From contig JAFKGI010000012.1 in the NCBI GenBank assembly GCA_017307785.1, positions 1-64,000 on the forward strand: a stretch of 64,000 nt of DNA, given 5' to 3'. Numbering within the stretch: the stretch's first letter is position 1; the number at the start of each line of letters is the position of its first letter. Shown here in pieces: positions 57,901 through 59,096 of this stretch. Below the pieces are notes generated by a model, which worked only from the letters and a program-made list of their open reading frames with translations, ran no database searches and was not told the DNA's origin. Origin of the DNA: Vulcanimicrobiota bacterium (GTDB lineage Bacteria; Vulcanimicrobiota; Xenobia; Xenobiales; JADMJV01). A program made the translations under genes and the position numbers.

Positions 57901-58095
57901 TCCCAGGACGGTGGCCAGCGCCGCGATCAGAAAGCTGAGCGGCAGAGCGGCCGGACCGTGATGAGCCAGCAGAAGAGATTCGCTCAGTACAAGACCCACC
58001 GTCTGGGCCAGATTGAGCAGCAGAGACAGTAACAAAAAGAAGGCAAAGCGCGCCATCTCGGGTGCGCGAACCTGGGGGAATAACCAGCGAATCAT
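54976..58095 (-). CDS. Multidomain membrane protein: N-terminal 12-TM MFS/ATP:ADP-antiporter(TLC)-like transporter domain + HEAT/armadillo repeats + C-terminal cyclic-nucleotide-binding domain
   Basis: 1039 aa. Residues 1–430 are polytopic. Residues 480–900 carry repeated LLxALxDxxxxVRxxA HEAT-like units. The C-terminus has a CAP/cNMP-binding fold (FAQMNLEQLV...GEVVFEEGQLGAELYILLDGSVRIV...NYFGEMAIL...RSASVVV). The start overlaps the kinase stop by 4 nt. Confidence 0.65.
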   Translation of the reverse strand: MIRWLFPQVRAPEMARFAFFLLLSLLLNLAQTVGLVLSESLLLAHHGPAALPLSFLIAALATVLGSLLYALGVHRAKNDRYFIRLLGGLAALVVLAWAGLTREVPGLYFALVSLFYLSQCILTNHYWTFTGDFFDTLASKRLFPLFVVGASLGGMIGAFLVTALGAYVRSEELLLLWPAFLLLAALLLRVSRRLLRRWGPLELEEADETSISEMRNAANYLRQSKLGQQLVVSCACMILAAFLGQYLYSSIILASYPDSEQLAAFLSRLLAITNGLEILVEVAVTPWLIRTLGVANANQVHSGLTCLSFLAICLSPNLVTAVALRATRESLENAIASPIRGLVYNALPARSRGRVRAFLEGLVTYAAMALAGVILWVVGSGAKPATWMYGLGFTAAALYFAANWAVRSSYLHTMIDEVQAGRLDLEELSGGFAVSELQRLTGLWQDLCREASDSPDPAILRLAQTLASRQAWGPLAEVAASDRELPVWLRRTCLQALAQPGWPRDWRLLQECAGSPEPEIRLAALRAVGELKPGLVPGWLVACMQDSQTEVRALAASLLIGLPKGKEASEASQCLLEMLADGEPPTVVAALRHTPMSLSSELVARSSHPSARVARAAMLRLAEFHGEDQGRRRHWVLSALEALDRREAPVRRAALQLLQSHQELIPEEGEVWRRISRHLEEPSKATRDRCIAVLASCPLDLGPILEPYLDSASGNTARAAVACLSQSSRKESRERLTRMLRSQVQQLWVCTLLRLPHGDAPQLQLDYMQLCLDNAIGRNRKLVFDILAGIETPKVIRSVEKVLRFTNLRARADALEVLSNLGDREASQLLVLLLESGDLRDKMGDLPASLVRQADWELFCSSQWLACDPWLSQAVEWLRKEKSWNEAEEEKVERLLVLRKVPLFAQMNLEQLVAIDQRLEEVEYLNGEVVFEEGQLGAELYILLDGSVRIVKARGSGQELLLTRLEGVNYFGEMAILDDEPRSASVVVERNSRLLVLKGEQLKDLVEQMPEMAFEIIKVLTARIRQADDRLNQMVKSKN

Positions 58096-59096
58096 TGGAC
58101 CGGGACGAGCTCGGCCAGCCGAGCGATGACCTCGTTCGCTGTTTGATATCGATTCTTGGGATCTTTGGCCAGCAACCGGGTCACGATGGCATCCAGATCG
58201 GCCGGAGCCAGACCCTTCTCGTACAGACTCGGGATCGGAGAGCGCAGATGCATCATCACCGTTTTCTCAGGACTCTCTCCAAGAAAGGGCGGAACGCCCG
58301 CCAACATTTCATAAAGCACACAGCCCAGAGCATAGAGGTCAGAGCGTTCATCGGCGATGCCGGTATCTTGCATGCGCTCGGGAGCCATGTATTCCGGAGT
58401 GCCGAAAGCCAGGCCGCGCGCCTTCTTGGCTTTGGGTCCACGGTCCGAGACCGCCGAGATGCCAAAATCCATCACTTTGATGCTGCGTCGGCTGGTGACG
58501 AAGATGTTGCGCGGCGAGATATCGCGGTGGATGACGCCGCGGGCGTGAGCCCAGCTCAAAGCGTCGGCCACCCCGCGAGCCACACCGACCGCTTCAGTAG
58601 GAGTCAGCGGCCCCGTTTCCAGAATCGCGTCCAGCTCCTGGCCTTCCAGATACTCCATTACGAAATAGGGAATTTTGGCGTAGCCACCGGCACGATAAGT
58701 GCCGGCATCCAGGACTTTGACAATGGAAGGATGGCGGAGGTCGATGCCAATCTGCGCCTCGCGCTCGAAGGTCGAGACGAACTTGCGATTTCTCAGAGGA
58801 CCGCGATGAGGTATTTTGACGGCCACCGTCTGCCCCTGAGGATCAATGCCGTTGTAAACCGTGGCCGTCCCCCCGTCAGCCAGCAGCACGCCCAGAGAGA
58901 AGTTCCCAATTCTGCCGTCCTTGGGCAAAGGGGCCGGATCCCCCCAATCTTTTGGAACTTTCGGGCGCATGCGCCGGCTCAGAACGGAGCTGACGATGAC
59001 GACTCCCAGGGCCACGCCACCAACCACCGGCAACGAGAAATCGGGAACAGAGTTATCGGGCGGTGGGCGTTTGGTAGCGGTCTGCTTCTTGGCCAA
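58092..59096 (-). CDS. Membrane-anchored eukaryotic-like protein kinase with Tyr-kinase-like catalytic loop (HRDISPRN)
   Basis: N-terminal TM helix. VAVKIP (beta3 Lys), HRDISPRN catalytic loop (Arg at +4 rather than Lys at +2), DFG, and GTPEYMAPE activation segment. Confidence 0.8.
   Translation of the reverse strand: MAKKQTATKRPPPDNSVPDFSLPVVGGVALGVVIVSSVLSRRMRPKVPKDWGDPAPLPKDGRIGNFSLGVLLADGGTATVYNGIDPQGQTVAVKIPHRGPLRNRKFVSTFEREAQIGIDLRHPSIVKVLDAGTYRAGGYAKIPYFVMEYLEGQELDAILETGPLTPTEAVGVARGVADALSWAHARGVIHRDISPRNIFVTSRRSIKVMDFGISAVSDRGPKAKKARGLAFGTPEYMAPERMQDTGIADERSDLYALGCVLYEMLAGVPPFLGESPEKTVMMHLRSPIPSLYEKGLAPADLDAIVTRLLAKDPKNRYQTANEVIARLAELVPVQ

Follow-up and report, generated by a model that had tools for sequence, protein, structure and literature searches.

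The 64,000 nucleotides analysed here (the window; positions 1 to 64,000 of contig JAFKGI010000012.1 from a Vulcanimicrobiota bacterium) encode on the minus strand a Hanks-type protein kinase with the catalytic loop HRDISPRN. Counted from the Asp of HRD, this loop contains a Ser at +2, where Ser/Thr kinases typically contain a Lys (HRDxKxxN), and an Arg at +4, where the tyrosine-kinase loop HRDLAARN has its own Arg. The +2 Lys neutralises phosphate charge (PMC5290486) and is thought to be important for catalysis (PMC2639636). The locus raises the question of whether such a kinase is active and, if so, which residue it phosphorylates. A previous, sequence-only reading had leaned towards Tyr or dual specificity; this interpretation is partly supported by our analysis. 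The likeness to tyrosine kinases is superficial and rests on one Arg, which is frequently absent from orthologues within the same operon. The explanation we favour, with a probability of roughly 0.6, is that the protein would be an active, membrane-tethered and Thr-directed Hanks kinase of an uncharacterised family, predicted to work together with the multi-FHA protein encoded by the adjacent gene.

The kinase gene and its motifs are located as follows.

58092..59096, minus strand: kinase gene, 334 amino acids, TTG start (open reading frame list, Pfam Pkinase)
58971..59033, minus strand: N-terminal transmembrane anchor, residues ~22-42, followed by the basic stretch SRRMRPKVPK and a conserved PAPLP motif
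58854..58880, minus strand: variant glycine-rich loop A-D-G-G-T-A-T-V-Y, residues 73-81, with the polar tip Thr77 replacing Met/Phe
58815..58826, minus strand: VAVK, residues 91-94, with the ATP-anchoring Lys94 of strand beta3, followed by the family-specific I-P-H
58506..58529, minus strand: catalytic loop HRDISPRN, residues 190-197, with Ser194 (+2), Pro195 (+3) and Arg196 (+4)
58461..58469, minus strand: DFG, residues 210-212, followed by I-S-A
58377..58403, minus strand: P+1 loop and APE motif GTPEYMAPE, residues 232-240, of the Ser/Thr-kinase type, followed by Arg241

Active-site motifs and nearest relatives of the kinase

The reading frame 58092-59096 and the motifs VAVK, HRDISPRN, DFG and APE were present as the sequence-only reading had described them (open reading frame list, Pfam). 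The encoded protein consists of a short N-terminal tail, a single transmembrane helix and a Hanks-type domain (residues ~64-330). With 150 bits (E=1.1e-43) for Pfam Pkinase (PF00069) it passes the threshold of the Hanks superfamily (cut-off 31.7), and the score for PK_Tyr_Ser-Thr is lower (106 bits). The set of Hanks residues is complete (K94, E113, D192, N197, D210, E240, D253 and R316), and Ser194 stands in place of the +2 Lys. Six-frame translation revealed that HRDISPRN is the sole Hanks-type catalytic loop in the window.

Alignment to the insulin receptor kinase confirmed that the +2 Lys is missing and that Arg196 is located at the position of the HRDLAARN Arg. The claim that the loop is exactly that of a tyrosine kinase holds for these two features, but not for the residues in between, since S-P-R keeps the Pro of Ser/Thr kinases instead of reading A-A-R. 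Compared with the tyrosine-kinase loops HRDLAARN and HRDLRAAN, only the +4 Arg matches; there is a Ser at +2 and a Pro, not an Ala, at +3. Whether a kinase is specific for Ser/Thr or for Tyr has been described as depending largely on its P+1 loop (PMC6213207), whose Thr hydrogen-bonds the Asp and the Lys of the catalytic loop (PMC2639636). Here, GTPEYMAPE conforms to the pattern of the Ser/Thr subclass, G-(T/S)-x-x-(Y/F)-x-A-P-E. In contrast, the insulin receptor kinase (LPVRW) has L, P, V and W at columns 232, 233, 234 and 236, with P and W opposite T233 and Y236 of the kinase in the window.

The best match among PDB sequences was PknB of M. tuberculosis (E=1.3e-59), and all 60 PDB sequence matches listed are Ser/Thr kinases, with no tyrosine kinase among them. 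An AlphaFold2 model calculated from the family alignment reached a mean predicted local distance difference test (pLDDT) score of 85.8. A Foldseek comparison of the model with the PDB again placed M. tuberculosis PknB first (TM-score 0.8-0.9 normalised to the target, 39-41% identity), followed by S. aureus PknB/Stk1, M. tuberculosis PknA and then eukaryotic Ser/Thr kinases; all 50 listed matches belong to this type and none is a tyrosine kinase. By sequence as well as by fold, the closest relatives among the matches listed are Ser/Thr kinases.

PknB and the PknB/Stk1-type kinases (PDB 1MRU, 1O6Y, 3ORO and others) share with the kinase in the window VAxK, the alphaC Glu, HRD, the Asn of the catalytic loop, DFG, GT..Y..PE, the alphaF Asp and the subdomain-XI Arg. 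They differ at several positions around the active site: PknB contains HRDVKPAN with the +2 Lys, a Met at the tip of the glycine-rich loop, an Arg at DFG+5 and Thr171/173 in the activation loop, whereas the corresponding residues here are Ser, Thr, Ala and Lys/Arg. The overall architecture is different, too. PknB carries a C-terminal transmembrane helix and extracellular PASTA domains; the protein in the window has its anchor at the N-terminus, ends at the kinase domain and lacks a sensor. In line with this, the PASTA-kinase model NF033483 reached 254 bits, below its cut-off of 450, and covered the kinase part only, and an NCBIfam scan of the kinase returned no model at its cut-off.

The N-terminal anchor is indicated by a Kyte-Doolittle maximum of 2.34 (sliding window of 17 residues from sequence index 23, residues ~24-40) and by a helix predicted by AlphaFold2 at residues 22-42, and most full-length family members possess a hydrophobic N-terminal segment. 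The positive charges are located after the helix (in members with the helix start at residues 1-6), which according to the positive-inside rule argues for an Nout-Cin anchor and a cytoplasmic kinase. The protein would consequently expose its catalytic domain to the cytoplasm without any sensor domain. A plus-strand open reading frame of 371 amino acids (58062-59177), which overlaps the kinase gene in antisense orientation, is most likely a shadow reading frame of this GC-rich (~60%) DNA.

Variation within the kinase family

A homologue search in 5.8 billion proteins identified a family of about 80 cluster representatives with 270-350 amino acids and 45-91% identity; the matches beyond this family were ordinary HRDxKPxN kinases. 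The few named members stem from metagenome-assembled genomes of Vulcanimicrobiota or Candidatus Eremiobacteraeota, and the taxonomy of the family rests on these few named clusters. One member, P0003, is 85% identical to the kinase in the window and lies on a 364-kb contig that is fully syntenic.

As to how common the loop is, the exact sequence HRDISPRN occurs in 32 of the 120 best cluster representatives. At +2 the family contains Ser in 74, Thr in 5 and Ala in 1 of 80 sequences, i.e. Ser/Thr in 79/80 down to about 45% identity, whereas all 40 of the closest canonical relatives have Lys. Because of these frequencies HRDISPRN is neither a product of chance nor a sequencing error, and the conservation of the +2 change implies that it is functionally meaningful. 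Position +3 is also conserved (Pro in 79/80). In contrast, +4 is variable: Arg is present in 39 sequences, Lys in 14, Ala, Ser and Gln in 7 each, and M, L, N or G in the rest, so that the Arg is replaced in 41/80 members and a non-basic residue is found in 27/80. Loop versions such as DVTPRN and DISPKN occur as well, and P0048 is an orthologue with K at +4. In a neighbour-joining tree rooted on PknB the family is monophyletic on a long branch, and Ser/Thr at +2 is common to the whole clade, which fits a single origin of this change. The state of +4, on the other hand, switches repeatedly. Several subclades carry R, one passes from K to Q, the sister group of the query's clade has A/M/L/N, and a soluble subclade has S/G/A.

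For comparison we used 266 catalytic loops from unrelated multi-kinase proteins, which are not an unbiased sample. They were obtained in a profile search of 1.84 billion representatives, in which multi-kinase proteins, with the scores of their domains added up, dominated the best 150 matches; P0017 was the only family member among these 150. Ser or Thr occurs at +2 in 18 of the 266 background loops (S 13, T 5), besides R 7, N 2 and A 1. A basic residue at +4 is found in 53/80 sequences of the Lys-less family and in 6/266 background loops, a comparison that is not a statistical test because the family sequences are interrelated. The enrichment is suggestive only, and compatible with charge compensation for the lost Lys. 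Taken with the variability of the position, the +4 Arg is probably a non-essential charge substitute. Contigs were also scanned. The peptide patterns GTPxY[LM]APER and [VI]KVMDFGI fit actinobacterial PknB as well, and with the family alignment L005 (48% identity) was the only family member among the matches listed.

The remaining catalytic machinery is conserved. E113, H190, R191, D192, N197, D210, F211, G212, D253 and R316 are invariant across 80 family sequences, K94 is invariant in 79/79 residues, and G232, T233, P234, Y236, P239, E240 and R241 in 80/80. That these residues have stayed fixed in sequences as divergent as about 45% identity points to selection for ATP/Mg binding and catalysis. 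A number of other positions around the active site separate the family from its canonical relatives. The residue after APE, R241, is Gln in the relatives; P96 and H97 behind the beta3 Lys are family-specific; the tip of the glycine-rich loop is T55/N19 (74/80) versus M27/F9 (36/40); and the first Gly of this loop is changed to Ala in 46/80 members. Behind the DFG motif, the Ala of the relatives at DFG+4 is a Ser in the family, and DFG+5 (position 215) is T/A/S in 79/80 members versus R/K in 34/40 relatives. In PKA and PknB, the basic residue at DFG+5 clamps the phosphate of the activation loop. The activation-loop threonines of PknB align with Lys/Arg in the kinase of the window, position 219 is basic (R/K) in 72/80 members, and no conserved activation-loop Thr was found in the family alignment. 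The polar loop tip, the loss of the DFG+5 residue and the lack of a conserved activation-loop Thr suggest a mode of switching that is independent of activation-loop phosphorylation. It looks as if the electrostatics of the active site had been rewired in the whole family, which would not depend on phosphorylation of this loop.

Matches to the small-molecule kinase families APH and ABC1 (Pfam, E~1e-7) were considered and rejected, because the full activation segment, the GT..APE loop, Asp253 (alphaF) and Arg316 (subdomain XI) are kept, and these elements of the activation segment and the C-lobe are invariant in the family and in its canonical relatives. No kinase paper containing the strings HRDISP or HRDISS was found in the literature searched, and a characterised Ser/Thr subfamily with this loop, which the sequence-only reading had named as counter-evidence to its idea, is not known. 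The family is an uncharacterised variant of the Hanks kinases with a loop undescribed in this literature, and its novelty is modest.

A subclade of the family consists of soluble proteins (P0031, P0038, P0042, P0043, P0059, P0060 and P0066-P0068; locus L085). Its members have no transmembrane helix, an N-terminus of the type MDRLLSWWKG and S/G/A at +4, and in most of them an Arg directly precedes the GTP of the P+1 loop. Their gene surroundings differ as well, with no FHA gene next to the kinase.

The FHA partner and the conserved gene cluster

The kinase gene is part of a cluster on the minus strand (53511-61936) with the following further genes and domains.

59105..60592, minus strand: upstream partner, FHA protein of 495 amino acids (Pfam FHA PF00498, E=7.7e-18)
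60296-60511, minus strand: canonical N-terminal FHA domain of this partner, residues ~28-99; the further modules of the protein are degenerate
54976..58095, minus strand: downstream membrane protein of 1039 amino acids with an MFS/TLC-like N-terminal part, HEAT repeats and a C-terminal cyclic-nucleotide-binding domain
60620..61936, minus strand: pyridine nucleotide-disulphide oxidoreductase, 438 amino acids, first gene of the cluster (Pfam Pyr_redox_2, E=3.8e-43)
53936-54976, minus strand: M48 peptidase (Pfam Peptidase_M48, E=4.3e-28)
53511-53936, minus strand: MAPEG protein (Pfam MAPEG, E=6.2e-12)

The position of an FHA gene next to the kinase, as stated in the sequence-only reading, was confirmed. 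A gap of 8 nt separates the stop codon of the FHA gene from the start of the kinase gene, whose stop shares a 4-nt overlap with the downstream gene, and the genes of the whole cluster, in the order Pyr_redox_2, multi-FHA, kinase, TLC-like/HEAT/cNMP, M48 peptidase and MAPEG, are tightly spaced or overlapping. Inspection of the contigs of six relatives (L001-L004, L085 and L086) demonstrated that this arrangement is widely kept. The complete order is also found in L001 and L002 and is retained at 62-85% kinase identity. An FHA gene is located directly upstream of the kinase in five of the six relatives (L001-L004 and L086, not L085) as well as in the window; Pyr_redox_2 precedes it in L001-L004, and the multi-FHA proteins have a length of about 480-507 amino acids. 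A TLC-like/HEAT/cNMP protein of 1040-1085 amino acids follows the kinase in L001, L002, L003 and L086, but not in L004. In L003 the kinase locus adjoins rpsB/tsf.

The pThr (phosphothreonine)-binding residues of the canonical FHA domain, G29, R30, S51, H54 and N75, are invariant in 6/6 orthologues. The domain has the canonical Gly-Arg, Ser-x-x-His and Asn, and together with the adjacency in five of the six relatives this qualifies kinase and FHA protein as a module. The intactness of these residues argues that the kinase produces pThr. The neighbourhood that the sequence-only reading considered an unexpected combination is a conserved partnership, and it provides the strongest contextual argument for Thr phosphorylation. 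The module also persists without a basic residue at +4, because the kinases of L003 (HRDISPMN) and L004 (HRDISPQN) keep it; P0033, with M at +4, and P0078, with Q, are such orthologues in a Pyr_redox-FHA-kinase operon. As the operon is retained where A, M, L, N or Q replaces the +4 Arg, this Arg is not essential to the module.

Residues ~130-495 of the FHA protein comprise additional FHA/YscD-like modules, including three Yop-YscD_cpl stretches (Pfam), which are conserved among the orthologues. Their Ser-x-x-His is degenerate, as for example in DRGAVH, and these modules probably do not bind pThr. In the 1039-amino-acid protein Pfam detected cNMP_binding (E=2.9e-21), HEAT_2 (E=1.1e-13) and, weakly, MFS_1. 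Faint matches to TLC, a nucleotide-transporter family, were seen in homologues of this protein. It could be a transporter-like protein regulated by cyclic nucleotides, which the kinase may phosphorylate or act together with.

From these data we propose the following scheme. The N-terminal helix would hold the kinase domain at the membrane on its cytoplasmic side, with no extracellular sensor domain. The kinase gene is predicted to be co-transcribed and probably translationally coupled with the upstream multi-FHA gene and, in most genomes, with the gene of the TLC-like/HEAT/cNMP-binding membrane protein downstream. The kinase may phosphorylate one or more threonines on itself or on its operon partners, and the canonical N-terminal FHA domain of its neighbour may bind this pThr and in this way assemble a signalling complex at the membrane. 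The whole family would transfer phosphate without the usual +2 Lys, and the Arg at +4 of the query subclade, or the Lys of another, probably makes up for the lost positive charge close to the gamma-phosphate and the phosphoacceptor.

Pairs of a Hanks kinase and an FHA protein encoded beside it are also known from other bacteria. PknB pairs with FhaA and FhaB/FipA, and the FHA protein of the window weakly matches the model FhaB_Rv0019c. PpkA/FHA-1 is listed as a bacterial kinase-FHA pair (PMC6213207) and corresponds to PpkA-Fha1 of type VI secretion in P. aeruginosa. The partner in the cluster described here, with its length of about 480-507 amino acids, differs from those proteins by the combination of one canonical with several degenerate FHA-like modules, and there are no type VI secretion or cell-division genes around the kinase.

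Low activity, tyrosine specificity and other explanations

Several points weigh against an active, Thr-directed kinase. Its activity and specificity are deduced from sequence, and given the role of the +2 Lys (PMC5290486, PMC2639636) the loss of this residue could mean very low activity. A search around the active site, including the members without R/K at +4, revealed no basic residue that could compensate for the lost Lys throughout the family. In the AlphaFold2 model the pLDDT falls below 50 in the activation loop (213-230), as it does in the first residues. No PP2C phosphatase was detected among the called genes of the six neighbourhoods, and P0059, with the loop HRDVSPSN, has no adjacent FHA gene but one about 8 kb away (locus L085). 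Some of these observations would suit a kinase with low or no activity that binds nucleotide and, tethered to the membrane, serves the FHA protein as a scaffold or switch, an explanation we regard as doubtful. It would account for the losses of the +2 Lys, of the hydrophobic tip of the glycine-rich loop (together with the change of the first Gly to Ala in 46/80) and of the R/K at DFG+5, as well as for the lack of a conserved activation-loop Thr, and the pseudokinase VRK3 has likewise lost the +2 Lys, besides other residues (PMC2639636). However, pseudokinases of the VRK3 type lose the very catalytic residues (PMC2639636) that are invariant here (K94, E113, D192, N197 and D210; n=80), among them the catalytic base and both metal ligands. 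A pseudokinase, an outcome that the sequence-only reading had allowed for, does not agree with the usual definition, i.e. the loss of the equivalents of K72, D166 or D184 in PKA numbering, since K94, D192 and D210 are invariant; the protein is not a classical pseudokinase, although the prediction of activity itself is sequence-based. Furthermore, the intact FHA domain needs a source of pThr, and neither the operon nor the rest of the 64-kb window encodes another kinase. Active kinases without the +2 Lys are also known, e.g. LIMK1, whose loop HRDLNSHN has been noted as deviating from HRDXKXXN (PMC8750758).

Phosphorylation of Tyr, either alone or together with Ser/Thr, would require that Arg196 acts like the Arg of HRDLAARN and bonds the Tyr hydroxyl, which appears improbable to us. 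In tyrosine kinases the AAR Arg does hydrogen-bond the hydroxyl of the substrate Tyr (PMC4771162), Arg196 aligns with this residue of the insulin receptor kinase with a non-basic +2 residue in both proteins, R/K at +4 is more frequent in the family than in the background, and bacterial dual-specificity Hanks kinases exist, for example PrkD/PrkG of B. anthracis (PMC6213207). But 27/80 members carry A, S, Q, M, L, N or G at this position, some of them orthologues from the same operon, the Pro at +3 is retained, and the P+1 loop is invariantly GTP..Y where the insulin receptor kinase has P-V-x-W. The Pkinase score exceeds that of PK_Tyr_Ser-Thr, no tyrosine kinase is among the 60 sequence and 50 fold matches listed, and the conserved partner reads pThr, not pTyr. 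The earlier lean towards Tyr specificity is not supported by this evidence. In any case, the motif of the catalytic loop is an unreliable guide to specificity, whichever way one argues from it: Wee1, with its Lys-type loop, is specific for Tyr, and Ser3 of cofilin is phosphorylated by LIMK/TESK, which lack the catalytic-loop Lys. Similarly, there is only a slight chance that the Lys-less loop evolved independently with an R/K at +4 replacing the +2 Lys as at the origin of the eukaryotic tyrosine kinases, and that the R/K members, the query included, are Tyr or dual Thr/Tyr kinases or use a distinct Lys-independent phosphotransfer that feeds a membrane-bound multi-FHA scaffold. A role in anti-phage defence of the PD-T4-6 or MADS type is highly unlikely. 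The PADLOC models for PD-T4-6 (up to 274 bits) and mad6 (215 bits) and the NCBIfam model antiphage_MADS6 (159 bits) do match, but the matches are generic to the kinase domain, with the NCBIfam model far below its cut-off of 460 bits. The FHA partner has no PADLOC match, further defence genes are absent from the neighbourhoods inspected, and the operon is chromosomal and syntenic across divergent genomes, lying beside rpsB/tsf in L003.

Among eukaryotic kinases, LIMK1/2 resemble the family as active Hanks kinases without the +2 Lys. The loop of TESK1 reads DLTSKN, with Thr at +2 and Lys at +4 like the members with DVTPRN or DISPKN; this string was not found in the literature searched. LIMK1/2 and TESK1 belong to the eukaryotic TKL group, have a Ser at +3, act in the context of actin/cofilin and show no detectable specific kinship to the family. 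In itself, the kinase in the window is one more variant bacterial Ser/Thr kinase. If it is active, the family with its roughly 80 representatives would be a natural and phylogenetically deep test case for Hanks catalysis without the catalytic-loop Lys. The natural +4 variants (R, K, Q, A, M and S) in orthologous operons represent built-in mutants that could show whether a basic residue compensates for the loss, and such compensation would bear on the possible evolution of the tyrosine-kinase catalytic loop. The operon of oxidoreductase, multi-FHA protein, kinase and TLC-like/HEAT/cNMP protein is conserved and uncharacterised in the Vulcanimicrobiota/Eremiobacterota metagenome-assembled genomes examined.

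A different kind of Lys-less loop was observed outside the window in unrelated tandem-kinase proteins (P0225, P0232, P0234, P0237, P0240, P0247 and P0249). In these proteins a domain with HRD[IL]SPDN always has GKxxYxSPE and lies beside a canonical domain with HRDLKPxN and GTPxYMAPE. The HRD[IL]SPDN domain contains a Lys at the 'GT' position of the P+1 loop, which normally bonds the +2 Lys, instead of at +2. This looks like a swap of the Lys and Thr positions and a route that differs from the one taken by the family of the window.

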